20,000 nucleotides of DNA from an uncultured virus (IMG/VR IMGVR_UViG_3300020595_000014). Its lineage: Duplodnaviria > Heunggongvirae > Uroviricota > Caudoviricetes. The notes under the pieces are model-generated. The model was not told where the DNA came from, ran no database searches, and saw only the letters and a list, made by a program, of their open reading frames with translations. Made by a program: the position numbers and the translations under genes. The stretch lies in IMG/VR virus record IMGVR_UViG_3300020595_000014, one strand, 5' to 3'. This document shows positions 4,270 to 20,000 of the stretch, piece after piece (the first letter of the stretch is position 1; every line of letters begins with the position of its first letter).

Positions 4270-5349
4270 TTATGGTATGTTAGGGTAGTTTGCCCAATCT
4301 ATTACGGTTACTCCAGATTTACCGCCAACTGTTTGACCAGCGCCTAATGTCCAGCCATTGGCTACTGCGTCATTAGCATAGACTGTGGTTAATCCAGAGT
4401 TGTTAAATGCATCACTACCAACGTTTGCTAGTGGCGGCGCTAGATATGCTGTAGTTAAGCCAGAGCAATTATAAAAAGCATAAGTCCCAATACTCGTAAC
4501 ACTATTTGGAATCACTAAACTAGTAAAGCCAGAGCAACTATCAAACGCATAATTTCCAATAGTAGTAACACTATCTGGAATCACTAAATCACCAGTAAAG
4601 CCAGAGCAATCATTAAAAGCATACTGTCCGATAATCGTAACACTATTTGGAATGACTAATGAACCAGTTAAGCCAGTGCAAAAATCAAAAGCATAACTCC
4701 CAATAACCTCTACTGTATTAGGTATACTTAATTCACCCACAACCCCACTTGCCTCAAATGGACCATAAACGGAGTCGATTGCACCAAGGTTAACAACACT
4801 TCCTAAATCTAAAGTAAACTGTGATCCCTGTGTATCGTAAAATATTGGACCATAAATATTCTTACAACTATCCAACAAAGTAACACTCTCTATACTACCA
4901 CAGGCTTCAAACGCACCATACCCATCTGCTGGATCACCGAGGGTCTCCATTTCTATAGTTATATCAGTGATATTTGTACCATAAAAGGCACCTACGCCAA
5001 GGGACAGGGTACTAGGCAGAAATATGCTGCCGGTTATAGGTGTATCAACAAAGGCATAATCCCCTATACTCGTTAAAGTAGAGGGCAGGGGATTAATAGG
5101 ACCGAGCTCAGTAAGGCTGCTATTATAACCAAAGGCGTAACTACCTATACTTGTGCATGATGTTCCAATCTGTAATTGTTTAATGTCACTTTCCTTCTTC
5201 CAATCATCAGGTATATCTCCCTGCACTTGACCAATCTCACCATTCGTTGTGCTACTCCAAACAATCGTAGGTGTTTTAAACTCCTGCTCATCTTGGAGGG
5301 TGAGTTCTACTACATTGTTGGTAATTTGTCCTTTGTATGTTTTGCTCAT
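4270..5349 (-). CDS. BspA-like leucine-rich repeat (LRR_5) protein, putative adhesin/receptor-binding protein
   Basis: Repeats such as LVIPNSVTIIGQYAFNDCSGFTG and LVIPDSVTTIGNYAFDSCSG. Lies in the virion gene cluster. Confidence 0.85.
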   Translation of the reverse strand: MSKTYKGQITNNVVELTLQDEQEFKTPTIVWSSTTNGEIGQVQGDIPDDWKKESDIKQLQIGTSCTSIGSYAFGYNSSLTELGPINPLPSTLTSIGDYAFVDTPITGSIFLPSTLSLGVGAFYGTNITDITIEMETLGDPADGYGAFEACGSIESVTLLDSCKNIYGPIFYDTQGSQFTLDLGSVVNLGAIDSVYGPFEASGVVGELSIPNTVEVIGSYAFDFCTGLTGSLVIPNSVTIIGQYAFNDCSGFTGDLVIPDSVTTIGNYAFDSCSGFTSLVIPNSVTSIGTYAFYNCSGLTTAYLAPPLANVGSDAFNNSGLTTVYANDAVANGWTLGAGQTVGGKSGVTVIDWANYPNIP

Positions 5350-5353
5350 GAGT

Positions 5354-6001
5354 CTATACTAAATCCTTTATAACTTCTATACCATAAATACCACCAATGT
5401 TCTGATTAGTTCCAGCAGTCCATGTACTGTCACTCACTCTAGCATGAATAGTGGCTAAGTTACTTGACCCGATAAACACTTCTGTATTTTCATCAATAAC
5501 TGTTTTAGATATATAACAATTAACATTAGTGAGGTTACTATTTATGCCAAAAGACCAATCTCCTATAAGCTGAACATTTCTACCTATGGTGAGGTTAGGG
5601 CCATATGTACATCCTGCAAAAACAGCAGAATAATCCAAATTATCCCCGATAGTTGTAACACTATCTGGTATAACTAAGTCACCTGTTATATTAGTTGCAA
5701 AATAAAACGCACCGCTTTCAATTGTTGTAACACTGTCTGGAATTACTAATTGGCAGTTGTATCTGTTGCCACCTAAACTGTTAAAACCGATTTTTGTACA
5801 AGATGTACCTAAAACGATTGCTTCACTGTCAGCTCCGTACCCGGCAAACCCACCAGTTGTTGCTTGGTCTATATCACCAAATATCTGGATAACTTCATTC
5901 ACCCCAGTATTCTTTGTAATAACAGTAGGTGTGCCAACAGGATCAAGCAAGTTAAGCTCAACTACATTATTAGTTACATTGCCTTTAAATAACTTGCTCA
6001 T
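5354..6001 (-). CDS. Short BspA-like LRR protein
   Basis: LVIPDSVTTIESGAFYFA and LVIPDSVTTIGD repeats. N-terminus shared with the other two LRR proteins. Confidence 0.8.
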   Translation of the reverse strand: MSKLFKGNVTNNVVELNLLDPVGTPTVITKNTGVNEVIQIFGDIDQATTGGFAGYGADSEAIVLGTSCTKIGFNSLGGNRYNCQLVIPDSVTTIESGAFYFATNITGDLVIPDSVTTIGDNLDYSAVFAGCTYGPNLTIGRNVQLIGDWSFGINSNLTNVNCYISKTVIDENTEVFIGSSNLATIHARVSDSTWTAGTNQNIGGIYGIEVIKDLV

Positions 6002-6007
6002 ATTAAA

Positions 6008-6574
6008 TTACCATGTGATTGCCTGTAACTCCACTATAGTAGTTGCGGCAGTGATTTCGTCATTGATTGCCTTTTCTCTTGCGAAAGAAGTTTGAATGTG
6101 ACTTGTGATTGCATCTGCTATTGAAGCAATCAATGTAGCATCAACAGTAATGAATGATCCATCACCGATCTTCCAATCAGTAGTGAATGCAGGGTCTGCA
6201 ACTGCTAGTGAATTTGCTTGATAAATCCTTGCTACTGTAAGTCTATCAGTTCTTACTGGCAAACCACCAACATCAATACCTCCGACTTCTACATTGTATC
6301 TTTTATCGGCGTAATGATCTCTTGAATGTTTCTTTGCACCATCAATATCTGCGCCAAAGTCTGTGAGTTGTTGATTGAATCTTTCTGTTTGTTTTTGCTC
6401 TCTAAATTCATCTTGTGTCAGTAGAGTACCGTTAACAATAAAGTATGTTTCATCAGAGGCATCAACAGTAGCTGCATCTGCATCTGAAATTTCGCTATAG
6501 TGTGGAGCTTCTGTCGGCTCTACATCTTCTATTCTGCGGATTCGTCCTTGAGGACCTGTGATTGCGTATTTCAT
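6008..6574 (-). CDS. DUF4376-like tail-fibre-associated protein
   Basis: C-terminal RYNVEVGGIDV.G.PVRTDR...WKIGDGSF..VDA...HIQTSFARE...I.AA.T..EL.AITW pattern matches DUF4376 as I recall it. Confidence 0.75.
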   Translation of the reverse strand: MKYAITGPQGRIRRIEDVEPTEAPHYSEISDADAATVDASDETYFIVNGTLLTQDEFREQKQTERFNQQLTDFGADIDGAKKHSRDHYADKRYNVEVGGIDVGGLPVRTDRLTVARIYQANSLAVADPAFTTDWKIGDGSFITVDATLIASIADAITSHIQTSFAREKAINDEITAATTIVELQAITW

Positions 6575-6594
6575 TTTTTTGTTTTAGTTAAAAT

Positions 6595-7599
6595 TTATGG
6601 TATGTTAGGGTAGTTAGTCCAAGGTAGCACTGTCATACCAGATCCTCCTTGGAATGTGGCACTATATTGACCAATGACATCAGGTCCTTCGTATATATTA
6701 ACAAGTGCAGTTGTGTTCAATAAAGCACCCGTTCCAACCCACGATGCTGCTGGTGTGTTGGTGTAAAGAGTAGTAATGGAAGAGCAATAACGAAAAGCCT
6801 GACTCCCAATACTCGTCACACTATCTGGAATCACTAAATTGCCAGTTAAGGCAGTGCAACCTTTAAAAGCAAACCCCCCAATACTCGTAATACCATCTGG
6901 AATCACTAATTCACCAGTTAAGCCAGAGCAATTATAAAAACCATTACCCCCAATAGTTTCAACACTATCTGGAATGACGAGCGAGCCAGTAAGAGAAGAA
7001 CAATCCGCGAAGGTATAGCTATAGATTGTATTTATATTATTAGAGATAGTTAATGATCCGTTGAAGCCTGTGCAGTCCCAAAAAGCACCTTCGCCGAGAC
7101 TTGTAACACTATCGGGGATTACCAAATCACCTGTAAACCCTGGATCAAAAGCAAAGGCATTGTTACCAATACTAGTAACACTATCTGGAATGACTAAGTC
7201 GCCAGTAAAACCACATTCACCCAAAGCATAGTCGCCGATGCTCGTAACATTACTTCCAATAGTTAGCGAACCGTTAAGGCTACTACCACAGTAATAAAAT
7301 GCGTAAGATCCGATGTTCGTAACACTATCTGGAATTACTAAATCACCAGTTAATTGATTGCAATAGTAAAAAGCATAACTCCCAATACTTGTGCAACTTG
7401 TTCCAATAGCAAGCCCCTTCATGTCATTGCGAGCATCATAAAACCCACTACCCTGAACAATATCTCCATTATGAACTACTTTGATTTCACCATTATTAGT
7501 TCCACCAATACCATAGGACAATGTGCCAGCATCTCCATCCAGTAAGTTTAATTCAACTACACTGTTAGTGACTTCACCTCTGAATGATTTACCTGCCAT
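6595..7599 (-). CDS. BspA-like LRR protein, putative adhesin/receptor-binding protein
   Basis: About 9 tandem ~24-aa repeats (LTGDLVIPDSVTSIGxxAFxxC). C-terminus WTNYPNIP is shared with 4270-5349. Confidence 0.85.
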   Translation of the reverse strand: MAGKSFRGEVTNSVVELNLLDGDAGTLSYGIGGTNNGEIKVVHNGDIVQGSGFYDARNDMKGLAIGTSCTSIGSYAFYYCNQLTGDLVIPDSVTNIGSYAFYYCGSSLNGSLTIGSNVTSIGDYALGECGFTGDLVIPDSVTSIGNNAFAFDPGFTGDLVIPDSVTSLGEGAFWDCTGFNGSLTISNNINTIYSYTFADCSSLTGSLVIPDSVETIGGNGFYNCSGLTGELVIPDGITSIGGFAFKGCTALTGNLVIPDSVTSIGSQAFRYCSSITTLYTNTPAASWVGTGALLNTTALVNIYEGPDVIGQYSATFQGGSGMTVLPWTNYPNIP

Positions 7600-10473: not shown

Positions 10474-10632
10474 CTAAGCTTGCTGAGCTAATATAAGACC
10501 TACATTAGCGGCACCATATGATAGCCAAGTAATGGCCCATGGCAGATTGCCCTTAAGAAGATAGGATGTACCTACCACTATATAGCCTACCATACACACG
10601 GCGACCACTATGTTCTCTAGCGTTAATTGCAT
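10474..10632 (-). CDS. Small membrane protein, 52 aa (not in ORF track)
   Basis: MQLTLENIVVAVCMVGYIVVGTSYLLKGNLPWAITWLSYGAANVGLILAQQA*. ATG is 6 nt after a minus-strand GGAAC-TCTAA-TATAAT element. Confidence 0.7.
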   Translation of the reverse strand: MQLTLENIVVAVCMVGYIVVGTSYLLKGNLPWAITWLSYGAANVGLILAQQA

Positions 10633-10707
10633 CCCATAATTATATTAGAGTTCCTGTTGATAGCTAGTATATCTTTTGCCTATACGGGAACACCGGTATA
10701 ATAATGT

Positions 10708-11049
10708 ATGAGCAAACAAAAGCCAAGCCATATGGATGAGCTGACCTTGCAATTATTTGACGAGGTTAAGATTAAACCGGACTTATACCCAGGCTATGCT
10801 ACAGGCGATGCCTCTGTACAGCATAGCTATTTCATCATTAAGAAATACGACGTTGAGTTAGGAGGGCATACAGTACCGTTCGTGGATATTCTTAGACACT
10901 CAGAGCAAGAAGAGATTGATTTGCACAACCAAGCATGGCAATATGTTATGGCAATGCCGCGGTGGACTAAGCCTTTTATACTTTCTTTCCCAGCTGAGAG
11001 TGTGCGTCGTGTGCCGACCCTTACCGTCCGGTTGAACAAACTCGACTAG
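10708..11049 (+). CDS. Hypothetical protein
   Basis: 113-aa ORF starting 5 nt after the element at 10687. Confidence 0.75.
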   Translation: MSKQKPSHMDELTLQLFDEVKIKPDLYPGYATGDASVQHSYFIIKKYDVELGGHTVPFVDILRHSEQEEIDLHNQAWQYVMAMPRWTKPFILSFPAESVRRVPTLTVRLNKLD

Positions 11050-11053
11050 AACA

Positions 11054-11191
11054 ATGAAGCTCACAACAATAATAGCAATAGGCGCTAGTGTAGCAGTTGT
11101 CTTGAATGGTATTGGCGCCACAGATCAAATATTCGAGTTCATAGTCAATTTATTACACCTTCACACTTTATCCCAGATAACGCCGCCATGA
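11054..11191 (+). CDS. Small hydrophobic hypothetical protein, 45 aa (not in ORF track)
   Basis: MKLTTIIAIGASVAVVLNGIG...TPP*. ATGA overlap with the next ORF. Confidence 0.5.
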   Translation: MKLTTIIAIGASVAVVLNGIGATDQIFEFIVNLLHLHTLSQITPP

Positions 11192-11397
11192 TATTAAATA
11201 TACAAGTGGAACCGCATAATAATCACTTTAAATCAGAAGAGGATTGGAGCGCGCCAGTAGTCAACCGGATTATTCCTAGAGAGAAGAGAACACTAAGGAA
11301 GGCATGCGTTACAGCTCTCGGGGTAGTCTTCTATATAACACTCGTAGTAGGCAGCATCTTAGGAGCAATAATAACTATAACAAGCAATCGCGATTAA
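11188..11397 (+). CDS. Small membrane protein
   Basis: C-terminal TM segment (ACVTALGVVFYITLVVGSILGAIITI). Translationally coupled to its neighbours. Confidence 0.6.
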   Translation: MILNIQVEPHNNHFKSEEDWSAPVVNRIIPREKRTLRKACVTALGVVFYITLVVGSILGAIITITSNRD

Positions 11398-11399
11398 TC

Positions 11400-11585
11400 A
11401 TGAAGCCTATAGGAGAGTTGACACAACAGAATATATCTGACCGGTTAGAGTGCCTTGAGTGGTACCTGAAATATTATAAGAAACAGAACACTGAACTAGT
11501 GCATGCGTATGAAGAGTCGCAAGTAAAGATGGTTAAGGTTCTAGAGTCAATTGAGATGTATGAGAGCATGCAAGAACAAACCTGA
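11400..11585 (+). CDS. Hypothetical coiled-coil protein, paralog of 13885-14064
   Basis: Start reassigned to ATG 11400 (MKPIGEL). Shares RLExLExxLKYxK...EES with 13885-14064. Confidence 0.7.
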   Translation: MKPIGELTQQNISDRLECLEWYLKYYKKQNTELVHAYEESQVKMVKVLESIEMYESMQEQT

Positions 11586-11590
11586 CGATA

Positions 11591-11755
11591 ATGTATACCG
11601 TTGAAGTAAAACATGATGGAAAGTGGAAGGAAGTAGACTCCGGAGAGTCATACCGGAATGTTAGGTTTACGGTAGATCTGTTTGTTGAGGCATTCGATAC
11701 GGACAGGGTACGCGTGAGGGCACCAGATGGGAGCTATATAGAGCTAGAGAAATAA
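11591..11755 (+). CDS. Hypothetical protein, 54 aa (not in ORF track)
   Basis: MYTVEVKHDGKWKEVDSGESY...RVRAPDGSYIELEK*. Stops 1 nt before the element at 11757. Confidence 0.65.
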   Translation: MYTVEVKHDGKWKEVDSGESYRNVRFTVDLFVEAFDTDRVRVRAPDGSYIELEK

Positions 11756-11778
11756 CGGAACACTGATATAATAACAGT

Positions 11779-11928
11779 ATGAAACCAGAAGAAAGAATGC
11801 AAGCATGGAAATCAATCAAAGGAGCTAAGCCAACATGGGAGGAATTCAAGCGCTTACTATCAGCTAGCGAGTACGATGTAGAGAAAGCCTTAAAGAAATG
11901 GAAGAAGAAACATCCGTTCCTGAAGTAA
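11779..11928 (+). CDS. Small basic hypothetical protein, 49 aa (not in ORF track)
   Basis: MKPEERMQAWKSIKGAKPTWEEFKRLL...KKKHPFLK*. ATG is 6 nt after TATAAT. Confidence 0.7.
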   Translation: MKPEERMQAWKSIKGAKPTWEEFKRLLSASEYDVEKALKKWKKKHPFLK

Positions 11929-12186
11929 TATCATAAGAAGATATAAGAAAACATATAAGGATAATATAAAAAGACACAAAATTCCTGTATAGTTACTATA
12001 TAACACTATGATAAAGAGACAATAGAGAATCTAAGAGAGAACATAGAAGAGACGGGAACTTCCGGAGAGAAGAGCTTTTACGAAATAGCTAAATGCAAAG
12101 GGAACACGATCGAAATAAGCGAATACAATTGTTCTAGAATCGAAATAGTCTGAGACCAATGAGAGACAATCTATCTGCACAGTTTA

Positions 12187-12236
12187 AAGCTATATCTGCC
12201 TAGGTGGAGGGCTTTGCTAAGCTATATCTGCCTAGG
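12187..12236. repeat. 18-bp direct repeat AAGCTATATCTGCCTAGG, two copies
   Basis: Copies at 12187-12204 and 12219-12236 in a non-coding stretch. Confidence 0.85.
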
Positions 12237-12374
12237 CGCTGCGGTTGAACTAGATAATATAAACGTGTGGAGATTATTACCTCGACTATATATCTCCCCG
12301 GGGCTCTGAGCTCTGCACCTCGGAATGCTACGCGCTTAGAGAGATGGGAACACTATTATAATAAGTAATAGCAT

Positions 12375-12602
12375 ATGAATAAAGGACCATTTGAATCAAA
12401 GAAGTTTACAGCCCTGATCTCTGGGATTGTCTTTAATGCTATTTTCGCAGGCCTCTCATTGTACTTCATTGCAGGTAATCCAGAGTCTGCTGTATCTATA
12501 GTAAACCTTATGACGGTATCATTAGCCTCTGTTAATGGTCTCATCTCTCTATATGCCATCGGCCAATCTGCGGTCGACTGGAAGATCAATACACCGAAGT
12601 AA
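12375..12602 (+). CDS. Two-TM membrane protein (holin-like)
   Basis: ESKKF, then two hydrophobic helices, then YAIGQSAVDWK. Confidence 0.65.
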   Translation: MNKGPFESKKFTALISGIVFNAIFAGLSLYFIAGNPESAVSIVNLMTVSLASVNGLISLYAIGQSAVDWKINTPK

Positions 12603-12606
12603 CTAC

Positions 12607-12765
12607 ATGAAGAAGAAGAACGCCATTAGGCTCGAGCTATGCCAGCTGATATCAGACGGGCTACTGGATAAGGACCTGGTACTGCTAGAGTTAATTTCTA
12701 GAACACCTCCTGGTAAGATTAGGGAACTAATCGAGATACTCAGACCATCAGAAGTGGTTGAGTAG
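12607..12765 (+). CDS. Hypothetical protein
   Basis: Start reassigned to ATG 12607 (MKKKNAIRLEL...), 4 nt after the upstream stop. Confidence 0.6.
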   Translation: MKKKNAIRLELCQLISDGLLDKDLVLLELISRTPPGKIRELIEILRPSEVVE

Positions 12766-12992
12766 AGGGAACTATTCTCATTATACTTTAGTTCCTATAC
12801 ACACAAAAAGGGAACTACTTTATAAAAAAAGAGTTCTCCCCAGACCTATAGTCTCATTGTTAGTCAGCTTGTCTGTAGGTCATACCCTCCCTACATCTAT
12901 ATTATATCGGTGTTCCTCTTTAGTGTAATTTGTACACTATACATCAAAGCTCCGAAGCCTATTATAAAAGGAACACTAATATAATAAAGGTG

Positions 12993-13178
12993 ATGAAAGA
13001 GATAAAGAGATGGATAGTAGCATACGACGCCGATGGTGAGACAGATATCTGCAGACATATAATGGCTGAAACGAGAGAGGAAGCAGAGAAGGAGTTAGCT
13101 AATCAGGTTAATTTAGAATTCTGTACTAATGTAGAGATGTTCGAAGATACACTCGCTCCTACGTGGCAGGAACTGTAA
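12993..13178 (+). CDS. Acidic hypothetical protein
   Basis: Starts GTG-ATG after element 12970. Ends WQEL* inside the next element. Confidence 0.75.
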   Translation: MKEIKRWIVAYDADGETDICRHIMAETREEAEKELANQVNLEFCTNVEMFEDTLAPTWQEL

Positions 13179-13189
13179 TATAATTAGGT

Positions 13190-13351
13190 ATGTTAAAAGT
13201 ACTACTAGAGATGTTGGATCAAGTTGAAGCAGCTTGGAAGGCTGGCCACCTCACAAGAAGAGAGGCACAACGCGAGTGTGTGTGGATTGGTGCATGTATG
13301 GATGCTTATGAGCTTGAGCAACAGATCGCTGCGAACCCTCTGAGGGGCTAG
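13190..13351 (+). CDS. Hypothetical protein, 53 aa (not in ORF track)
   Basis: MLKVLLEMLDQVEAAWKAGHLTRREAQREC...PLRG*. Flanked by elements 13169 and 13356. Confidence 0.7.
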   Translation: MLKVLLEMLDQVEAAWKAGHLTRREAQRECVWIGACMDAYELEQQIAANPLRG

Positions 13352-13375
13352 TATAGGAACACTAATATAATAAAG

Positions 13376-13588
13376 GTGATGAAAGATAATAACCATAAAG
13401 TCAGTGATGAGGTCCACTATAACATCCCAGTTAAGGTCAGAGAGATTGTCAATGGGCACCTGTTGATAAATGAGAGGCTTCAGTGTCAGCACAACAGAGA
13501 GATACTAGATGAGATCATTGCTGATCTACAGCAGTATGCTTCTGAGTTACCATCAGTCTCTGATCTAGAAACCTGTAATGTCCTCTAG
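13376..13588 (+). CDS. Hypothetical protein
   Basis: GTG-ATG start after element 13356. Confidence 0.7.
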   Translation: MMKDNNHKVSDEVHYNIPVKVREIVNGHLLINERLQCQHNREILDEIIADLQQYASELPSVSDLETCNVL

Positions 13589-13589
13589 T

Positions 13590-13847
13590 ATGAATGTTAT
13601 TAAAAGAAGAACGAGATGCGCCTTAGATCTAATGAAGGAGGGCGGTCTAACATCTGATGGTGAGTTAGATACACATAACAACTATATGATGGAAGACCTT
13701 AAGGATAAGGTAGATGATCTAGATAACTGGCTCAATGGAACTGATGGTGGGTTTGATCAAGATAACTCTTTACATATGAACATGTTGGCTGATATTGTCA
13801 TGTGCTATGATAAGCTTGAAAGTATATGCGAGAGGGTAGTCCAATAG
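13590..13847 (+). CDS. Acidic hypothetical protein, paralog of 18186-18476
   Basis: Start probably ATG 13590. Shares Y..E.L..K...D.W...FD.DN..H....A...M..D.L..I.E with 18186-18476. Confidence 0.7.
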   Translation: MNVIKRRTRCALDLMKEGGLTSDGELDTHNNYMMEDLKDKVDDLDNWLNGTDGGFDQDNSLHMNMLADIVMCYDKLESICERVVQ

Positions 13848-13884
13848 TTGGACTACGAAAAAGTAACACTGATATAATATACAC

Positions 13885-14064
13885 ATGATAGATTACCAAC
13901 ATTACGTAGCTGAGCGGTTAGAGAGTCTAGAGTTAGACCTGAAGTACCATAAGATGAGAAGCACACACCTTGCGCGCAAGCTAGAAGAGAGTGAGGACAA
14001 GCTATCAGAGATCTTAAAAGAGATTCGCGACCTTAAGGTTAACTATAAACAGCCAGTACAGTAA
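13885..14064 (+). CDS. Coiled-coil hypothetical protein, 59 aa (not in ORF track), paralog of 11400-11585
   Basis: MIDYQHYVAERLESLELDLKYHKMRSTHLARKLEESEDKL... follows the variant element GTAAC-ACTGA-TATAAT. Confidence 0.7.
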   Translation: MIDYQHYVAERLESLELDLKYHKMRSTHLARKLEESEDKLSEILKEIRDLKVNYKQPVQ

Positions 14065-14065
14065 C

Positions 14066-14227
14066 ATGACTAACTACATCACATATACAACAGACGGTAG
14101 ATACTTCGTTATCGATAATACATCCCTGCAGCAAGACGGTATCCTTGCTCATGCTATTAAGTGCGAGTGTACGTCGAATTGGGACGCTCAGGAGATCGCA
14201 GATAGTCTTAACGGTGAAGTATTATAG
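14066..14227 (+). CDS. Hypothetical protein, 53 aa (not in ORF track)
   Basis: MTNYITYTTDGRYFVIDN...WDAQEIADSLNGEVL*. Starts 1 nt after the previous stop and ends just before element 14232. Confidence 0.65.
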   Translation: MTNYITYTTDGRYFVIDNTSLQQDGILAHAIKCECTSNWDAQEIADSLNGEVL

Positions 14228-14253
14228 AAAGGGAACACTTATATAATAATAGT

Positions 14254-14442
14254 ATGAGCAGTTGGATTTGGAAATTTGAGCAAGGTGATGAGGTCATTGT
14301 CGATGGTGAGCTTCTGTATGTAGAGAAGAAGGCTAAGAAGAAGTGGTACCTACCGCTAGCGCCAGACACCTGGTGGTGCTATAATGGCTACGGCGAGGAT
14401 CAATTAGTTAAAGAGAGTGACATGACGCATAAGGAACTCTGA
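14254..14442 (+). CDS. Small beta-rich (SH3/KOW-like pattern) hypothetical protein, paralog of 14737-14922
   Basis: Follows element 14232. GDEVIVDGELLYVE...W...GED...SD..HKEL*. Confidence 0.75.
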   Translation: MSSWIWKFEQGDEVIVDGELLYVEKKAKKKWYLPLAPDTWWCYNGYGEDQLVKESDMTHKEL

Positions 14443-14452
14443 TATAATAAAG

Positions 14453-14716
14453 GTGATGAAGACACAAACTATGACACCCACCACGCCTGCTAACATCTAC
14501 GACTTCAATGAAGAGGTTGTGAGCATTCCTTTAATCAGCCTGACCACACTAGTGAGTGGGCTTAAGCTGAGTGTTAAGTTCAATGAGGACTTTAAAGGAT
14601 GTGTAAAGACAGCTCGACATCTACTATCAACTCCTAAGGGCTATAGGACAGAAGACATCCTGCACCACCTGGAGACATCACTAGCTGACACTAAGGCACA
14701 CTATGGCATAGAGTAA
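14453..14716 (+). CDS. Hypothetical protein
   Basis: Bounded by elements 14433 and 14717. Confidence 0.75.
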   Translation: MMKTQTMTPTTPANIYDFNEEVVSIPLISLTTLVSGLKLSVKFNEDFKGCVKTARHLLSTPKGYRTEDILHHLETSLADTKAHYGIE

Positions 14717-14736
14717 GGAACTCTGATATAATTAAG

Positions 14737-14922
14737 GTGATGAAAAATAAAGATATAAAGAATGGTGACTTTGTTCTCTACACGCAAGGAGACAAGAGTG
14801 TCATCCTGTACGTAGAGTTCTACAATGAGAGTGACGACGTCTGGTTAGGAACAGACTCTGACGGGGAAGATTACTTCTTTCAAGCTAGCGATATTGACCC
14901 ATGTGACCATAAGGAACTCTGA
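14737..14922 (+). CDS. Small acidic beta-rich hypothetical protein, paralog of 14254-14442
   Basis: Bounded by elements 14717 and 14913. Ends HKEL*. Confidence 0.75.
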   Translation: MMKNKDIKNGDFVLYTQGDKSVILYVEFYNESDDVWLGTDSDGEDYFFQASDIDPCDHKEL

Positions 14923-14934
14923 TATAATAATAGT

Positions 14935-15225
14935 ATGATGAATATAAAACCGACAATTCGCGAGGTAAAGGTAATCCTTAACGCACTAGGAATCGATAGA
15001 GACGCAATCTCACACCATTGGAATGATACAAGAGTTCGGGGAGGGCGTATTAAGTTCTATTCTAGGAACAATATTGACAATGTCTTACCGAAACTAAATG
15101 ATCATTTAGTATCATTGTTCCCAGACTTTAAAGTCGAATCGACTAGTTATGGTAGGAACGTATATACAATTCACTTCAAGGAGATGGATGCAACGTTTGA
15201 CTTCTTCGGAGTCAACCCTTCTTAG
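14935..15225 (+). CDS. Hypothetical protein
   Basis: Bounded by elements 14913 and 15225. Confidence 0.75.
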   Translation: MMNIKPTIREVKVILNALGIDRDAISHHWNDTRVRGGRIKFYSRNNIDNVLPKLNDHLVSLFPDFKVESTSYGRNVYTIHFKEMDATFDFFGVNPS

Positions 15226-15246
15226 GAACCCCGATATAATAATAGC

Positions 15247-15486
15247 ATGAACAACAACGAGATGAAGAACATAACACTCTCCCGGATCACGTCCGTTCTA
15301 GATACAGTGAGCTGTAAACTAGTACTCCTAGAGGCACTCGATCGCGATCAGAGCGATAGTGGTTACGGTGATCTTATCGATCAGATAGCTACAATGCGAG
15401 CAGGTCTCGCTACTCTTCAAGGAGCTGTCTCACGAGCAGAATCAGTAGTACCATCAACTATTAGCAGCTCTAGACATCTCGTTTAA
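15247..15486 (+). CDS. Helical hypothetical protein
   Basis: Follows element 15225. Confidence 0.7.
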   Translation: MNNNEMKNITLSRITSVLDTVSCKLVLLEALDRDQSDSGYGDLIDQIATMRAGLATLQGAVSRAESVVPSTISSSRHLV

Positions 15487-15493
15487 ACACTCT

Positions 15494-15553
15494 CTCGAAG
15501 AATACTCTTCGAGCGCTACCGAGGAGTGCTCGTACAAAAAAACGAGCACTCCT
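15494..15553. terminator. Two adjacent perfect hairpins (possible terminator or processing signal)
   Basis: CTCGAAGA-ATAC-TCTTCGAG (15494-15513) and AGGAGTGCTCGT-8 nt-ACGAGCACTCCT (15522-15553). No clear U-tract. Confidence 0.45.
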
Positions 15554-15583
15554 TACATAAAGGAACACTGATATAATAATAAT

Positions 15584-15805
15584 ATGAACGCAAATAAAAA
15601 GCAAGTAAACGTCGAAAGCCGCACCCGTCAACCAAACCTATTCTCGGTTGTACTAGAGCGCGACCCATCCACCGGTGACTTCACCGTGGTAGGTCATCAA
15701 GCAAAGCGCCTGGTAATGAAGAATCAGTTTAAGGGTGACTGGGTAAAAGTAGCGCCGCGAGCCATCGCTAAGGCACTCCGCAATAACAAGATCAAAGCTG
15801 CATAG
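15584..15805 (+). CDS. Basic hypothetical protein
   Basis: Follows element 15562. Confidence 0.75.
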   Translation: MNANKKQVNVESRTRQPNLFSVVLERDPSTGDFTVVGHQAKRLVMKNQFKGDWVKVAPRAIAKALRNNKIKAA

Positions 15806-15823
15806 CACCTACGATTTTCATCA

Positions 15824-15850
15824 GTCCCTGGACATGGGCCTAAACTGTCC
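15824..15850 (+). ncRNA. Candidate H-type pseudoknot motif, copy 1
   Basis: GTCC-CT-GGACA-T-GGGC-CTAAAC-TGTCC. P1 is GUCC/GGGC and P2 is GGACA/UGUCC. Confidence 0.6.
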
Positions 15851-15881
15851 GATCTTTTACAGTTTGAAGAAGAATGATCTG

Positions 15882-15969
15882 TGGCCTGTGCGCCGAGCGG
15901 TCGAAGGCGCCGGACTCATAATCCGGGACGTAAGATACATCGTGGGTTCAAATCCCACCGGGCCGACCA
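15882..15969 (+). tRNA. tRNA with CAU anticodon (Met or Ile2) and a long variable arm
   Basis: Acceptor TGGCCTG/CGGGCCG plus A-CCA. Anticodon arm CCGGA-CTCATAA-TCCGG with CAT at 15917-15919. T arm GTGGG-TTCAAAT-CCCAC. Variable region 15 nt. Confidence 0.92.
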
Positions 15970-16004
15970 TTCTTCACAAATAGGAACACAGATATAATAA
16001 TAGT

Positions 16005-16184
16005 ATGGCCGACAGTATACAACTACAATCTTTAGAAGAGAGCTTAGCTCGAATGTTTGAGAAAGAACTCGACAAGCTACATACTATTATAGCTGAGCTT
16101 GAGAGCAACATCTCTACTACTATGTCGGAGGTAGAGAAACTTAAAGCAGCAGCTAATCGAGGTAATACGCCTTACGATTGGTAA
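16005..16184 (+). CDS. Coiled-coil hypothetical protein, 59 aa (not in ORF track)
   Basis: MADSIQLQSLEESLARMFEKELDKLH...TPYDW*. ATG is 6 nt after TATAAT of element 15983. Confidence 0.7.
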   Translation: MADSIQLQSLEESLARMFEKELDKLHTIIAELESNISTTMSEVEKLKAAANRGNTPYDW

Positions 16185-16315
16185 CCCTTTTCGATCGAGT
16201 GCGTCAAAGAACAACATGTCCTTATCACTACTAAATTAAGACGCCAGGCATAGCCTACGATCATCACATTGATCCCCGAGTATAATGTAAACTGGATCGT
16301 TAAACAAACTGCTCT

Positions 16316-16343
16316 AGGACCTTAGCATGTCTTTAAACTGCTA
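16316..16343 (+). ncRNA. Candidate H-type pseudoknot motif, copy 2
   Basis: AGGAC-CT-TAGCA-T-GTCTT-TAAAC-TGCTA. P1 is AGGAC/GUCUU and P2 is UAGCA/UGCUA. Confidence 0.6.
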
Positions 16344-16373
16344 CCACTTTCTAAGAACCCCGTCATAATAATA

Positions 16374-16499
16374 ATGAGACACGACCAAGATCCAATTGAA
16401 GAGATGATGCAATGGCTGCTGATGGGAGTCTGTATAGCGGCAGGGGGGCTAGCGCTAGCAGTATTTGTATGTATCGTACTACGTGCCATCATTAGTTAA
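16374..16499 (+). CDS. Small single-TM protein, 41 aa (not in ORF track)
   Basis: MRHDQDPIEEMMQWLLMGVCIAAGGLALAVFVCIVLRAIIS*. Follows the variant element at 16354. Confidence 0.6.
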   Translation: MRHDQDPIEEMMQWLLMGVCIAAGGLALAVFVCIVLRAIIS

Positions 16500-16506
16500 T
16501 AAAGAT

Positions 16507-16734
16507 ATGAGAAGTAAAAAGAAGACCAATTGGGAGTTCGTTATAACGTTGATGTGTATTGCCGCCCTAGGCTCTATGATGTGCTACGTAGGTAAGTACA
16601 TTGATATGCAGGCTCAACGAATCGACTATCTAGAGATCGAGAACCTTAAGCACAGCGAGGCACTACACATCCTACTACCTTCAGCCAGAGAGGAGGTTAA
16701 GGCTGGCGTTAGCTGGCACGATATGGAACCCTGA
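16507..16734 (+). CDS. Single-TM hypothetical protein
   Basis: Start reassigned to ATG 16507 (MRSKKKTNWEFVITLMCIAALG). Its stop TGA lies in element 16725. Confidence 0.65.
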   Translation: MRSKKKTNWEFVITLMCIAALGSMMCYVGKYIDMQAQRIDYLEIENLKHSEALHILLPSAREEVKAGVSWHDMEP

Positions 16735-16749
16735 TATAATATAGGTACG

Positions 16750-16947
16750 ATGAAGTTAAAAGGACCACTAAAGCTGGATAAGATATATGATGTTGATGGT
16801 ACGGATATGTATGGAGTACTGCTAGAGGATCATGGACTAGAGGAGGTAGTAGATGAGATGAATGTTCTGATGGATTACATTAGAGAGCTTAGTGGTAGGG
16901 TAGAGGAGCTTGAGTTTGCTTATGAGCGTGGAAGAGAGGAACTCTAA
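16750..16947 (+). CDS. Acidic hypothetical protein
   Basis: Bounded by elements 16725 and 16938. Ends REEL*. Confidence 0.75.
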   Translation: MKLKGPLKLDKIYDVDGTDMYGVLLEDHGLEEVVDEMNVLMDYIRELSGRVEELEFAYERGREEL

Positions 16948-16959
16948 TATAATAATAGT

Positions 16960-17043
16960 ATGACAATTATTGAATGGAGAGAGATGGTAGATGCAGGTCT
17001 TATTCAATTGGATGAGGATGGTAATGAAATAAAGGAACTCTGA
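16960..17043 (+). CDS. 27-aa acidic peptide (not in ORF track)
   Basis: MTIIEWREMVDAGLIQLDEDGNEIKEL* exactly fills the space between elements 16938 and 17034. Confidence 0.6.
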   Translation: MTIIEWREMVDAGLIQLDEDGNEIKEL

Positions 17044-17054
17044 TATAATTAGTT

Positions 17055-17309
17055 ATGATGAAAGTAAAAAATGTTATTGGATATAATGAAGTTGGGTTGG
17101 ATTATAAATTATGTGAAGAGATTTATGAGAATGGAAGTGGGAAAGATATTGAAGGAAGGTTTTTAGATGTTGAGTTTTTGAAGATTATTCTAGAAAGTAC
17201 TATTGAGTGGGTTGAAGAGAATAGTGAATATTGTTGGTGGAAAGACAAATGTGTAATAATGCTTAATAGTCTTGAGAAGTTTGATGATGAGGTGTTAGTA
17301 GAGTTTTAG
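17055..17309 (+). CDS. Acidic hypothetical protein, paralog of 17331-17600, C-poor gene
   Basis: Bounded by elements. Only 5 C in 255 nt by my count. Confidence 0.8.
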   Translation: MMKVKNVIGYNEVGLDYKLCEEIYENGSGKDIEGRFLDVEFLKIILESTIEWVEENSEYCWWKDKCVIMLNSLEKFDDEVLVEF

Positions 17310-17330
17310 GAACTCCAATATAATAATAGT

Positions 17331-17600
17331 ATGATGAAAGTAAAAGGTTATAAGGTAGTTGAGTTTGGCGATACAAATGTTGATTTTGATGTTTGTAGTT
17401 CTTTATATGATATGTGGTCAGGATTAGACTTAATAGGTCGAGTTGTTAAGGTAAGTTTTTGGAAGGAACAGATTACAGACTTTATAAAAGATATGAAGGA
17501 TGATGGAGATTATGATAGTAAGGATGATTGGACTATTAAAGTAGAGAAGGTATTAGAAGAAGTTAATAAGTTGGAAGAGGGTTTGTATATTCAATTTTAG
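17331..17600 (+). CDS. Acidic hypothetical protein, paralog of 17055-17309
   Basis: Shares MMKVK...D...C...Y...SG.D..GR...V.F.K with 17055-17309. Confidence 0.8.
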   Translation: MMKVKGYKVVEFGDTNVDFDVCSSLYDMWSGLDLIGRVVKVSFWKEQITDFIKDMKDDGDYDSKDDWTIKVEKVLEEVNKLEEGLYIQF

Positions 17601-17621
17601 GAACTCTAATATAATATAAGT

Positions 17622-17786
17622 ATGATGAATTATAAAAGTGTTTGTGAAAAATATGGAGATGAAGTTGGTTTAAAAGTACTAGACTTTATTGAAGAAGGTT
17701 GGGGCGAGAATGGAGCTGATGAGTTCAAATTTGATGATGGAAGTGTCTTTAAAGAGGTAGTTGAGGAATTTATTAAGGAACTCTAA
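17622..17786 (+). CDS. Acidic hypothetical protein, 54 aa (not in ORF track)
   Basis: MMNYKSVCEKYGDEVGLKVLDFIEEGW...VVEEFIKEL*. Bounded by elements 17600 and 17777. Confidence 0.7.
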   Translation: MMNYKSVCEKYGDEVGLKVLDFIEEGWGENGADEFKFDDGSVFKEVVEEFIKEL

Positions 17787-17798
17787 TATAATAATAGT

Positions 17799-17942
17799 AT
17801 GATGAAAGATATATTAGAAGTTGGTAAGAAGTATAGAGGTGAGTTGTTGAGAGTTGATTATGGATATGAGATTGATGATTGTGAAGATGATTGTTGGTTT
17901 TATATTCTAAAGGGTGGTGAGATTATTAAGGAGGAACTCTAA
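17799..17942 (+). CDS. Acidic hypothetical protein, 47 aa (not in ORF track)
   Basis: MMKDILEVGKKYRGELLRVDYGYEIDDCEDDCWFYILKGGEIIKEEL*. Bounded by elements 17777 and 17933. Confidence 0.7.
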   Translation: MMKDILEVGKKYRGELLRVDYGYEIDDCEDDCWFYILKGGEIIKEEL

Positions 17943-17954
17943 TATAATAATAGT

Positions 17955-18164
17955 ATGATGAATGATTGTTTAGGAAAAGAGCAGGACGAGTTGGTAGCAG
18001 CAATTGCCAAGAAGCATATGCATATTAAAACACTTAAGGAACAAAAGTCAGATAGTCTTGATTTTCATGATGTGAGTGTTTGGCGGCTTGAAGGCGCTCT
18101 TAAAGAGGCACTTCGAACTGGTATTGATATTGGTATTAAGATGACAGTAAATCATTTGAAGTAG
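17955..18164 (+). CDS. DUF6900-like protein
   Basis: IAKKHMHIKTLKEQKSDSLDFHDVSVW.L..AL..A...G matches the DUF6900 signature (SDSLDFHDVSVW) as I recall it. Confidence 0.75.
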   Translation: MMNDCLGKEQDELVAAIAKKHMHIKTLKEQKSDSLDFHDVSVWRLEGALKEALRTGIDIGIKMTVNHLK

Positions 18165-18185
18165 GAACTCTAATATAATAATAGT

Positions 18186-18476
18186 ATGATGAATATAACA
18201 TATAACAAACTAAGCAAGATTCGCGCAACAAGATACTTCAATGATATGGAGAGAGATGATAAGGAAACTGCTTTATTATATCTCGGAGAGGAACTTGTCC
18301 AGAAGATTAAGAGAATCGATTCATGGATGAGTGATGAGAAGGGATTTGAAGGAACTAAGTTTGATGTAGATAATAATAACCACTCTAGATTATTCGCTAA
18401 GTTAGATATGTTAAATGACGAGTTAATGGATATTATTGAGAAGGCTGGATTAGATCTAGTGGCAGAGATTCACTAA
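18186..18476 (+). CDS. Hypothetical protein, paralog of 13590-13847
   Basis: Follows element 18164. Shares the FD.DN..H motif. Confidence 0.75.
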   Translation: MMNITYNKLSKIRATRYFNDMERDDKETALLYLGEELVQKIKRIDSWMSDEKGFEGTKFDVDNNNHSRLFAKLDMLNDELMDIIEKAGLDLVAEIH

Positions 18477-18502
18477 CAGGAACACCAATATAATTAGTCA
18501 CG

Positions 18503-18838
18503 ATGAATATACAAGACCTAATCCAAGCACTAGAAGAAATCGCTGAGCAGTCACCTAACGCTGAAGTTCGATTTGCGAGTCAACCTAGCTATCCATTTGA
18601 GTACTCCATTGCAGAAGTAGTCCCATGGGATAAGCATACAATGATCGACAATGAGATTGAAGAGATCCGACAATCGATTGACGAAAATAATCAAGAGCCT
18701 ATGTCACATAAAGATATGAAGGCATTGGCTGAGCAGAATTTAGAAGACGAAGGAGTGCTCGAGGATGTGGTATATCTCGAAGAAGGTACACAGCTAGGCT
18801 ATCTCCCAGAAGGTCCAAGGCATGCCTTAGGCTGGTAA
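18503..18838 (+). CDS. Conserved-looking acidic hypothetical protein
   Basis: AEVRFASQPSYPFEYSI...VVYLEEGTQLGYLP...ALGW resembles a widespread uncharacterised phage/mobile-element family. Confidence 0.8.
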   Translation: MNIQDLIQALEEIAEQSPNAEVRFASQPSYPFEYSIAEVVPWDKHTMIDNEIEEIRQSIDENNQEPMSHKDMKALAEQNLEDEGVLEDVVYLEEGTQLGYLPEGPRHALGW

Positions 18839-18852
18839 AGATTTCATCATAA

Positions 18853-18879
18853 CACCTAGGTAAGTGCCTAAACTGCCTA
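18853..18879 (+). ncRNA. Candidate H-type pseudoknot motif, copy 3
   Basis: CAC-CT-AGGTA-A-GTG-CCTAAAC-TGCCT. P1 is CAC/GUG and P2 is AGGUA/UGCCU. Confidence 0.55.
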
Positions 18880-18909
18880 CTATATTAGGAACTCCGATAT
18901 AATAATAGT

Positions 18910-19227
18910 ATGATGAATAAGAACTATAAAATAATCCACACGATGAAGGTCCTAATCAAGACACAATACAAGGAGTGGTATGGTTGTGAAGACCATATAG
19001 GCGATGAAGCCTATGGTCGTTACAAGAACAAAGGAGGCATGGACTATGTCTTAGAGGTCGACGAGCATGTGTTTATGTATGATGAAGAGTCTGTTCGCAA
19101 GGCCTTCCATGATGTGTATGATGTACCTGGATCGTTCACTAGATGTACTATTGTCGATATCGAGCCCTGCTATAGAGAGCCAAGAGAGATTAAGCTAGAC
19201 ATTAAGAGTGATGCTCTAGTGCACTAG
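18910..19227 (+). CDS. Hypothetical protein (alternative start 18943)
   Basis: Bounded by elements 18888 and 19227. Contains I.TQY.E.YG...YKNKGG.DY. Confidence 0.75.
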   Translation: MMNKNYKIIHTMKVLIKTQYKEWYGCEDHIGDEAYGRYKNKGGMDYVLEVDEHVFMYDEESVRKAFHDVYDVPGSFTRCTIVDIEPCYREPREIKLDIKSDALVH

Positions 19228-19247
19228 GAACACTGATATAATAAGTT

Positions 19248-19463
19248 ATGGACAAAAGGATAAACTACCCATATGCATATGGGCGCTTGAGCTCTTCATT
19301 GAGTGGCTTCGCCCTAATGAAGAAGATGAAGGAGAAGGGCCTCGACCTAAAGAATTGGGACCTAGAATGCGCAATCCAGGAGTTGTTGGACCAGGCCCTA
19401 GATGACCTGAAGAAAGAAACTCATGATGCAGCTGCAGTAGAGCACGAGAAGTACGGATCATGA
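19248..19463 (+). CDS. Hypothetical protein
   Basis: Follows element 19227. N-terminus INYPYAYGRL. Confidence 0.75.
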   Translation: MDKRINYPYAYGRLSSSLSGFALMKKMKEKGLDLKNWDLECAIQELLDQALDDLKKETHDAAAVEHEKYGS

Positions 19464-19627
19464 AGACACATCCCATACAAGAAGTCCTAGACGACCTAGA
19501 CAAGAAGATAGAGCTAGAGAGGATCAAGCAAGACCTCCACTCAGTAAGAAATCTATTCGTTATCTTTGCAGCATCAGTAGTAGTATGGTCAGCTGCTATC
19601 ACACTAACCATCCACCTAATCAAGTAA
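19460..19627 (+). CDS. Small protein with a C-terminal TM segment, 55 aa (not in ORF track)
   Basis: ATGA overlap upstream and TAATG overlap downstream. Ends ...VRNLFVIFAASVVVWSAAITLTIHLIK*. Confidence 0.65.
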   Translation: MKTHPIQEVLDDLDKKIELERIKQDLHSVRNLFVIFAASVVVWSAAITLTIHLIK

Positions 19628-19884
19628 TGCCTCTCCCAGAAGATGTACCGAAAGACCTACTCTATATGCAGAGATGCTACAATTGGCTATATAGTAAGGC
19701 CGGAAGCGATCTACAAGCAGCAGCTACAGAGGGTAGTAAGGAGTGCCAGCGCCTGATGGATAAGCTTAACCTCAGCATCAACACGATAGAGTACTGGCAA
19801 CTGGAGGGAGACTTCGGTAGGGCACACTATGAGGTAGAGCAATTGAAAGCTTGGTTCTGTCCTATCATGGACTTAAAGTATTAG
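19627..19884 (+). CDS. Hypothetical protein
   Basis: Start reassigned to ATG 19627 (MPLPEDVPKD). Stop TAG abuts element 19884. Confidence 0.7.
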   Translation: MPLPEDVPKDLLYMQRCYNWLYSKAGSDLQAAATEGSKECQRLMDKLNLSINTIEYWQLEGDFGRAHYEVEQLKAWFCPIMDLKY

Positions 19885-19905
19885 GAACTCCGATATAATA
19901 AGAGT

Positions 19906-20000
19906 ATGGAAAAGCTAAACAATCGTTATCATTTCGCATACAGTCAGGATGAACAAGATAAGCAGCTCTGGATCGATGCTGATGGATTCGCTAGAGCATA
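19906..20000 (+). CDS. Hypothetical protein, truncated by the window edge
   Basis: MEKLNNRYHFAYSQDEQDKQLWIDADGFARA... starts 6 nt after TATAAT of element 19884. Confidence 0.65.
   Translation, partial: MEKLNNRYHFAYSQDEQDKQLWIDADGFARA

Follow-up and report, generated by a model that had tools for sequence, protein, structure and literature searches.

The micro-gene array and its element

The stretch of DNA analyzed here (the window) is 20,000 nt from the uncultured virus IMGVR_UViG_3300020595_000014 of IMG/VR, numbered from its first letter. Its left half (1-10.2 kb), mostly on the minus strand, encodes GroEL, a virion protein, a sulfotransferase, three BspA-type leucine-rich-repeat proteins and a DUF4376 tail-fibre protein. 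The right half carries an array of about 36 tiny open reading frames (ORFs) of unknown function behind 25 plus-strand copies of a short element, GGAAC-N5-TATAAT, which is the subject of this report. A significant family match was found for 1/36 of these ORFs, to DUF6900, itself a family without known function.

Exact copies of the element number 28 in the window, 25 on the plus strand (10687 to 19884) and three on the minus strand (at 10654, 12795 and 12916). Allowing at most one mismatch gives 32 copies against 0.59 expected (SD 0.79), a count reached in 0/200 shuffles. A first-pass annotation of this DNA had described an array of about 28 promoter plus micro-gene cassettes, with nearly every small ORF following the element, and had considered the products probable host-takeover or anti-defence proteins. 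The element is real, and the picture needs three amendments. There are 25 cassettes headed by the putative promoter on the plus strand, plus two degenerate copies (GTAAC at 13863; AGAAC..CATAAT at 16354); some 11 more small ORFs lack an element, their starts lying within a few bases of the upstream stop; and three copies point leftwards, two of them with no ORF. The array is set out below. Remarks on missing or swapped segments refer to L234, L235 and L236, which together with L233 are close relatives obtained by a protein search of metagenome contigs; lengths are in amino acids (aa).

10474-10654, minus strand: leftward cassette, element 10639-10654 (GGAACTCTAATATAAT on the minus strand), ORF 10474-10632 (52 aa); back to back with the first rightward element
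10687-11049, plus strand: cassette, element 10687-10702, ORF 10708-11049 (113 aa)
11054-11755, plus strand: four ORFs with no element, 11054-11191, 11188-11397, 11400-11585 and 11591-11755, each overlapping the upstream stop or starting a few bases from it
11757-11928, plus strand: cassette, element 11757-11772, ORF 11779-11928 (49 aa)
12347-12765, plus strand: element 12347-12362, ORF 12375-12602 (75 aa, membrane-like; 12 nt past TATAAT), then coupled ORF 12607-12765
12780-12795, minus strand: leftward element with no ORF behind it, antisense to ORF 12607-12765
12901-12916, minus strand: leftward element with no ORF behind it, the ATG being followed directly by TAG
12970-13178, plus strand: cassette, element 12970-12985, ORF 12993-13178; this and the next cassette (13001-13354) are absent from L236
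13169-13351, plus strand: cassette, element 13169-13184, ORF 13190-13351
13356-13847, plus strand: element 13356-13371, ORF 13379-13588, then overlapping ORF 13578-13847
13863-14227, plus strand: variant element GTAAC-N5-TATAAT 13863-13878, ORF 13885-14064, then coupled ORF 14066-14227; 13880-14227 missing in L236
14232-14442, plus strand: cassette, element 14232-14247, ORF 14254-14442, its stop TGA inside the next element
14433-14716, plus strand: cassette, element 14433-14448, ORF 14456-14716; 14461-14713 missing in L234, L235 and L236, with a 31-nt flank overlap
14717-14922, plus strand: cassette, element 14717-14732, ORF 14740-14922
14913-15225, plus strand: cassette, element 14913-14928, ORF 14935-15225 (96 aa)
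15225-15486, plus strand: cassette, element 15225-15240, ORF 15247-15486
15494-15554, plus strand: two strong hairpins (-33.4 kcal/mol, z -6.8), the sole stem-loop ahead of an element
15562-15805, plus strand: cassette, element 15562-15577, ORF 15584-15805
15983-16184, plus strand: cassette, element 15983-15998, ORF 16005-16184
16354-16734, plus strand: degenerate element AGAAC-N5-CATAAT 16354-16369, ORF 16374-16499, then coupled ORF 16507-16734; 16510-16719 missing in L235
16725-16947, plus strand: cassette, element 16725-16740, ORF 16750-16947
16938-17043, plus strand: cassette, element 16938-16953, ORF 16960-17043 (27 aa); body 16964-17032 swapped for 213 nt in L234
17034-17309, plus strand: cassette, element 17034-17049, ORF 17055-17309
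17309-17600, plus strand: cassette, element 17309-17324, ORF 17331-17600; 17339-17591 missing in L234, with a 38-nt flank overlap
17600-17786, plus strand: cassette, element 17600-17615, ORF 17622-17786
17777-17942, plus strand: cassette, element 17777-17792, ORF 17799-17942; body 17812-17931 swapped for 369 nt (L234) or 189 nt (L235)
17933-18164, plus strand: cassette, element 17933-17948, ORF 17955-18164, the ORF that matches DUF6900
18164-18476, plus strand: cassette, element 18164-18179, ORF 18186-18476
18479-18838, plus strand: cassette, element 18479-18494, ORF 18503-18838
18888-19227, plus strand: cassette, element 18888-18903, ORF 18910-19227
19227-19884, plus strand: element 19227-19242, ORF 19248-19463, then coupled ORFs 19460-19627 and 19627-19884; 19228-19437 missing in L234
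19884-20000, plus strand: element 19884-19899, ORF start at 19906, running off the window

The position of the four ORFs at 11054-11755 suggests that they may be translated by coupling. The leftward ORF 10474-10632 has homologs at 43-46% in three motif-bearing contigs.

The geometry of the element is rigid. No copy of GGAAC-Nx-TATAAT with x = 0-4 or 6-20 occurs on either strand of the window; only x = 5 is present. In the 24 cassettes whose element has at most one mismatch, the gap from TATAAT to ATG is 5 nt in four, 6 nt in 14, 7 nt in four, 8 nt in one and 9 nt in one, which places 22/24 within 5-7 nt, as are 225/297 unique instances on other contigs. The cassette at 12347 is one more case, with its ATG 12 nt past TATAAT. 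The stretches 12969-13000 and 13355-13386 are exactly identical over 32 nt. Doubled starts occur at 14/25 plus-strand copies (ATGATG at eight, GTGATG at four, ACGATG at two).

At the expected place of a -35 hexamer, no position exceeds 0.09 bits across 297 related instances, and a consensus scan found no systematic TTGACA upstream of the elements. Judged by eye, with no formal test, none of the genes in the window, small or large, is preceded by a Shine-Dalgarno sequence. A design for an extracytoplasmic function (ECF) sigma factor, with GGAAC as a -35 lying 16-17 nt upstream of a CGT-type -10, does not describe these sites, in which the spacing is 5 only and the -10 is TATAAT. The first-pass annotation had already pointed to the fixed spacing, the start 5-7 nt behind TATAAT, the 32-bp identity, the doubled starts and the lack of -35 and Shine-Dalgarno sequences. 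It had also held that the element fits neither a sigma-70 -35, a TG extended -10, an ECF promoter nor a MotA box. Our counts bear it out on all of these, with spacing 5 only and nothing conserved at -30. When five elements were folded, four did no better than shuffles and one reached z -2.4.

Upstream genes end at or inside the element, which packs stop, putative promoter and start into 20-30 nt; at 20/25 copies the stop codon of the upstream ORF falls within or against it. In nine cassettes the upstream ORF runs through GGAAC and ends at a TGA or TAA in N5, and several proteins therefore end in ..KEL (e.g. 14440-14442, 14920-14922, 16945-16947, 17784-17786 and 17940-17942); in seven a TAG overlaps the first G of GGAAC. 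As a general claim, that the element stops translation in all three frames was dropped: it is true of 13/28 copies in the window and of 83/317 elsewhere, against about 20% in shuffles.

Conservation, exchange and spread

In three relatives 93-99% identical to the window, 0/420 positions of GGAAC plus TATAAT are substituted. The corresponding counts are 9/190 for N5, 9/228 for the 6 nt before ATG and 218/10181 (2.1%) for the rest. The core is thus under selection, and the free variation of N5 and of the 6 nt before ATG is the reverse of the pattern expected of a ribosome-binding signal.

The first-pass annotation had suggested that the repeat acts as a recombination joint and that indel breakpoints in related genomes should be compared with it. 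Three natural relatives bear this out. L233 is 99.9% identical to the window over 12 kb, with no indels. Comparison with L234, L235 and L236 gave 13 junctions, 10 of them distinct, consisting of cassette-sized deletions and replacements. Of their ends, 23/26 lie within -8 to +34 of a GGAAC start (17/20 when distinct events alone are counted); we calculate that such stretches account for about 14% of the DNA compared. In pure deletions or insertions the flanks overlap by the element itself: by 31 nt at 14461-14713 (in all three relatives), 38 nt at 17339-17591, 32 nt at 13001-13354 and 21 nt at 13880-14227. The deletion at 13001-13354 joins the identical pair at 12969 and 13355. At four junctions, with three distinct boundary pairs, the ORF body between two elements is replaced: 16964-17032 by 213 nt, 17812-17931 by 369 or 189 nt, and 16964-17597 by 212 nt. 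These breakpoints directly support the element as a recombination joint.

The window is part of a large uncultured marine myovirus with T4-type genes, although no T4 hallmark gene lies in the window itself. Megablast of both window halves against the phage collection found no close deposited phage, and blastn with 33 nt gave only chance matches of 17-26 nt. Marine metagenomes contain the stretch 10600-20000 almost in full: at least half of the sampled words occur in 16 rows, and some part of the stretch in 20 rows from 13 studies. IMG/VR contigs with a GroEL 96-99% identical to that of the window extend the phage (G090 and G091). G091 encodes a T4-type baseplate wedge subunit, a clamp loader, a dUTPase and fibre domains. 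G090 (C1:13435-21365) has a second array with eight exact elements, about 2-10 kb to the left of the first base of the window, and inside it a DnaB-like helicase fragment. The BspA-type repeat and tail-fibre region, 4270-7599, is 66-82% identical to G090 27200-30524 or cannot be aligned, against 93% in the flanks, and looks like a faster-evolving host-range module.

A second lineage carries the same element. Its contigs G002 and G004, with 11-23 exact copies each, are clearly T4-like, encoding a gp23-type head protein, portal, gp43 polymerase, UvsX, gp32, gp41- and gp61-like proteins, gp46 and gp47, and they are far from cultured phages (head protein at most 35% identical to cyanomyovirus proteins, polymerase at most 33%). 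Relaxed sites number 43 on the plus and two on the minus strand in G002, and 34 and two in G004, nearly all before plus-strand small ORFs; one copy before a helicase gene is conserved in both. Between G002 and G004, 80/102 core ORFs have a homolog, in the same order, against 4/61 array ORFs, in scrambled order. One cassette shared by the two has 90% protein identity, above the core level, with nucleotide homology running from the ATG to 2 nt past the shared element. Ends of high-scoring segment pairs (HSPs) of at least 80% identity fall at 19/232 gene junctions with an element and 20/675 without. Of the HSP ends between different contigs, 5.1% lie at most 10 nt from an element, compared with 1.7% of random places, a weak difference that is confounded with gene boundaries.

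Hexamers at the fixed offset from 568 AGGAAC sites read TATAAT in 301 cases, TACAAT in 24, TAAAAT in 15, TAGAAT in eight, TATCAT in three and TATACT in three. The variants keep T1, A2 and T6 (TAnnnT), so the hexamer behaves as a -10 of the sigma-70 family.

Other promoter classes are found in the same phages. Canonical TTGA-N18-20-TATAAT promoters with an ATG 3-10 nt behind occur six times in G002 (0.5 expected) and 12 times in G004 (0.8 expected). In the window, canonical TTGA-N-TA(T/A)AAT promoters lie at 2484-2511 (minus strand) before GroEL and at 4235-4262 (minus strand) before the sulfotransferase, 8-9 nt from the gene. The GGAAC class and the canonical one are mutually exclusive, with TTGA at the -35 place of only 13/270 GGAAC sites. 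A pair of T4-type late boxes, TATAAATA, lies back to back in the window, at 10187 (minus strand) and 10235 (plus strand), each 5 nt before an ATG, at 10181 (minus) and 10246 (plus), and T4-type late genes likewise appear leaderless. Judged from sequence, the leaderless layout appears to hold across all three promoter classes, in a system that would work without Shine-Dalgarno sequences.

A strict 19-mer version of the element is found in at least 153 stretches of IMG/VR, and among the matches listed 75 have at least two core copies. Run against one genome for each prokaryote species, this 19-mer matched 59 times, always singly and never as an array. Those that are not repeats fall inside genes, and 27/59 are one repeat, with identical flanks, in two metagenome-assembled genomes (MAGs) of Arcobacteraceae and unrelated to the phage element. 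This Arcobacteraceae/Halarcobacter repeat (L174-L227), with 22 copies in one MAG and five in the other, happens to contain the 19-mer, and its identical flanks make it probably an insertion sequence. Of 78 viral loci that encode a GroEL relative, eight reach at least 75% identity and six of these have elements; the other 70 loci (939 kb) total one copy. Seven deposited phages (Bacteroides DAC16, Flavobacterium immuto, Pelagibacter Mosig, C48C1, S-N03, P-SSM2 and PA-SR01) are at control level or zero. More than 100 IMG/VR contigs bear arrays of this kind, and the element belongs to particular uncultured marine phage lineages.

The scan of related phages and of the host that the first-pass annotation had proposed thus yields arrays in uncultured phage contigs; its host side consists of 81 Bacteroidota genomes (at most seven copies each), five other genomes (one to three copies) and the one strict 19-mer scan, with no arrays. 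A Bacteroidota host, first suggested by GroEL and the BspA-type repeats, is spoken against by the canonical TTGA/TATAAT promoters and by the Bacteroidota-type TAnnTTTG motif, which is not enriched in the window (9 against 20.7 expected). Look-alikes of the sulfotransferase in the Atlas are viral or from Pseudomonadota, which is a host lead only.

Interpretation of the element

We read the array element, with a probability of about 0.7, as a promoter independent of a -35, with a sigma-70-type -10, that yields leaderless mRNAs and serves also as a recombination joint. Each copy would be a self-sufficient promoter about 22 bp long, in which TATAAT would be the -10 hexamer of the sigma-70 family and the invariant GGAAC at -22 to -18 would give an upstream contact in place of the -35. 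Transcription would start on or next to the A of the ATG 5-7 nt downstream and give an mRNA with no leader and no need of a Shine-Dalgarno sequence; genes with no element, which begin at the stop of the previous gene, are probably translated by coupling. With the same 20-40 nt recurring every 100-400 nt, homologous recombination between copies could delete, duplicate or replace whole cassettes and leave the genes unbroken.

Promoter activity is consistent with every sequence test run. The 6-nt gap puts the A of the ATG seventh after the -10, the usual start position, which suggests a leaderless geometry. The unusual early-promoter class proposed in the first-pass annotation gains from the -10 hexamer with its TAnnnT variants, the fixed geometry, the co-orientation with genes and the unsubstituted core, all of them arguments from sequence; its early timing would be by analogy with T4. 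A literature search, with subscription journals outside its coverage, found no description of a GGAAC-N5-TATAAT class. Two metatranscriptome runs contain 0.90 and 0.81 of the sampled words of 10600-20000, as assembled contigs; these cover the early parts as well as the late ones, and no site at which many molecules start emerged from them. That RNA contigs end or join at elements was set aside as evidence of starts or recombination: DNA contigs break there too, and the sides of the joints, 23-31 nt, are those of an assembler stopping at a repeat.

Several points weigh against this reading. The RNA data are assembled contigs, which cannot show 5′ ends. Terminator-like sites in the array are at shuffle level (5 against 4.7 expected), so longer read-through transcripts would also cover each gene, in a form that is not leaderless. 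That the element is not the ordinary promoter of the host is a statement covering the 81 Bacteroidota, the five other genomes and the one strict 19-mer scan. Of the 26 breakpoint ends, three lie elsewhere: at 19438 inside an ORF, at 16509 at the ATG of an ORF with no element, and at 18460. Finally, nearly every gene boundary in the array is an element, so selection for intact genes would also put surviving breakpoints there; even so, the 21-38 nt of plain homology at the overlaps speak for unequal homologous exchange between copies.

The arrangement has a precedent in the promoter early stem-loops (PeSLs) of T4-type phages, repeated early promoters in hyperplastic regions, recombination between which shuffles orphan genes and can form mini-circles (Arbiol et al. 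2010, PMC2839356; Comeau et al. 2014, PMC4122927). There, too, a repeated promoter motif is crowded directly before orphan genes in a hyperplastic region of a T4-type genome, the motif takes in both the upstream stop and the downstream start, and recombination between copies yields insertions, deletions and replacements among close relatives. In a PeSL an AT-rich part precedes a full sigma-70 promoter (-35 and -10), and a stem-loop terminator and a Shine-Dalgarno sequence are present; the array element combines a perfect -10 with a GGAAC box 5 bp away from it, lacks -35 and Shine-Dalgarno sequences, and has a predicted leaderless start. It has no stem-loop, although 1/25 copies has one nearby (15494-15554). 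The array repeats a logic already known from PeSL cassettes, with a different and smaller element, and the present data add natural breakpoints, the selection test and the candidate three-class leaderless layout. The first-pass comparison with integrons lacking attC holds in so far as single-gene modules are shuffled; it is not new in kind, since PeSL cassette shuffling was already described in T4-type phages.

Integron cassettes are likewise single-gene modules gained, lost and reordered; those of the array each carry their own putative promoter, and there is no integrase in the window, no folded attC, and exchange by plain homology. Cassette-sized indels with breakpoints in the repeat are what a dedicated site-specific recombinase would also leave if the repeat were its attC analogue. 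We hold this very unlikely, because a scan of 58 window proteins turned up neither an integrase nor a recombinase family, inverted repeats and folding are absent from the element, plain-homology overlaps mark the crossovers as in unequal homologous exchange, and related phages carry UvsX.

Two other readings deny the element a sigma-70-type -10. It could be an RNA-level signal on a polycistronic transcript, either a ribosome-loading site that is not Shine-Dalgarno or an RNase site freeing 5′-AUG ends, as the scarcity of terminators, the lack of any Shine-Dalgarno sequence in the window, the fixed distance to ATG and the unstructured element RNA would allow. This is improbable: the core matches the bacterial -10 hexamer exactly and varies in the sigma-70 manner, N5 and the 6 nt before ATG vary freely, opposite to a ribosome site, two leftward copies have no ORF, the canonical promoters and T4-type late boxes keep the same distance to ATG, and eleven array ORFs manage with no element. 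The architecture of sigma-54 promoters, TGGCAC-N5-TTGC, shares the two-block layout with a 5-nt gap and GG at -24. We give it next to no credence, since the near-invariant GC of its -12 block is TA in every copy here, its start site would land inside the ORF, and no enhancer-binding ATPase was seen.

The extended -10 (TGn) is also independent of a -35, and TG stands at -15/-14 in 10/28 copies, the remaining copies having TA, CA or CG; N5, however, varies freely in the relatives, and the conserved part of the array element is further upstream. Leaderless genes of 'group C' bacteria similarly have a Pribnow box 6-8 nt before the start codon, but their internal genes use Shine-Dalgarno sequences (GeneMarkS-2, PMC6028130), which are not seen in these phages, where all three promoter classes look leaderless.

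As to what reads GGAAC, RNA polymerase itself, through the beta-prime zipper or sigma domain 3 at a natural -10/Z promoter, has in our estimate an even chance; a phage protein has a little less than that, and some other reader a small one. The Z-element of the T7 A1 (AACCT) and A2 (AACAT) promoters, at -22 to -18, acts via the beta-prime zipper and can replace the -35 if the -10 is strong (Yuzenkova et al. 2011, PMC3173786). A '-10/Z' class of promoters was foreseen in that paper, which reportedly examined the Z-element only in engineered T7 A1 and A2 derivatives (PMC3173786). If +1 is the A of the ATG, GGAAC would occupy exactly -22 to -18, a match that the first-pass annotation overlooked. 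The shared core is AAC and no more, AACWC lying 2 bp further downstream. The position at -22 to -18, the perfect -10 and the initial need of a T4-type phage for the unmodified host enzyme argue for polymerase alone. Against it, the five bases of GGAAC are invariant, whereas the published Z-element is loose, with weak single-base effects, reported as below 2-fold (PMC3173786); and canonical -35/-10 promoters occur in the same phages, as two differently timed classes would give.

That last pattern is what a phage-encoded factor would produce, with GGAAC as the box of a MotA/AsiA-like activator, a sigma adaptor or a phage sigma, and the array as a phage-specific, middle-like temporal class. T4 middle promoters, in the same way, join a sigma-70 -10 to a phage-specific box replacing the -35 and coexist with canonical early and T4-type late promoters. 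The MotA box is of TGCTT type and centred at -30; the array box lies at -20, with nothing conserved at -30. We regard such a factor as a tentative possibility, to which the invariance of GGAAC in relatives lends weight, as do its coexistence with canonical TTGA/TATAAT promoters in the same genomes and the mutual exclusion of the two, the restriction of arrays to viral contigs (75 with at least two copies among the 153 viral matches listed, against 0/59 bacterial loci) and the absence of the class from the seven deposited phages. It is opposed by the partial genome G002 (contig 58% complete), in which no MotA, AsiA or sigma family or relative was detected among 126 ORFs searched against Pfam and 105 small ORFs against PHROGs, and by the position of the box, which, centred at -20, is covered by the polymerase, a place at which activators are not known to bind. 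A T4-type phage also depends on the unmodified host enzyme for its first genes, and orphan-gene arrays are early in T4 (PMC2839356).

A broader claim is offered as doubtful. GGAAC at -20 may represent an undescribed mode of promoter recognition, either a sequence-specific -10/Z class acting via the polymerase core or sigma domain 3, or the box of an unknown phage adaptor. In abundant marine T4-like phages it would be combined with genome-wide leaderless translation, in a stop-promoter-start unit of 20-30 nt that is at once expression signal and recombination joint of a fast-turning pool of orphan genes.

Whatever reads it, the element offers hundreds of natural sites with a 5-bp box, one helical turn upstream of the -10, replacing the -35, which could make recognition of that region testable; the Z-element paper reportedly left Z-like sequences in other promoters untested (PMC3173786). 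The PeSL principle, in which repeated promoters act as joints for shuffling, extends to a widespread marine lineage that is uncultured and distant, where the element is far smaller and the breakpoints are seen in natural populations. Gene finders that expect a Shine-Dalgarno sequence will misplace starts in these phages, and the element gives exact starts for dozens of micro-genes. A fully leaderless layout free of Shine-Dalgarno sequences would also be a clue to the translation habits of the host.

Minor features of the array

Three other observations concern the array. An 88-nt tRNA gene at 15882-15969 (Rfam tRNA, 48 bits) has anticodon CAT and a long variable arm, and its D arm resembles, as we take it, those of serine tRNAs; a type-II tRNA reading AUG or AUA would be unusual. 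The non-coding gap 11929-12346 holds an exact 18-nt direct repeat, AAGCTATATCTGCCTAGG, at 12187 and 12219, and the gap 12766-12969 holds the two leftward elements with no ORF (12795 and 12916) together with two degenerate rightward ones; antisense or small RNAs could be encoded in these gaps. Six consecutive micro-genes at 16750-17942 have 2-9% C on the coding strand, against 13-26% in other array ORFs, and 17001-18000 has a GC skew of 0.75 at 30% GC. Recent import from another phage could explain this, as could deamination of a non-template strand under heavy transcription or the avoidance of some nuclease. These C-poor micro-genes bear the most uniform copies of the element.

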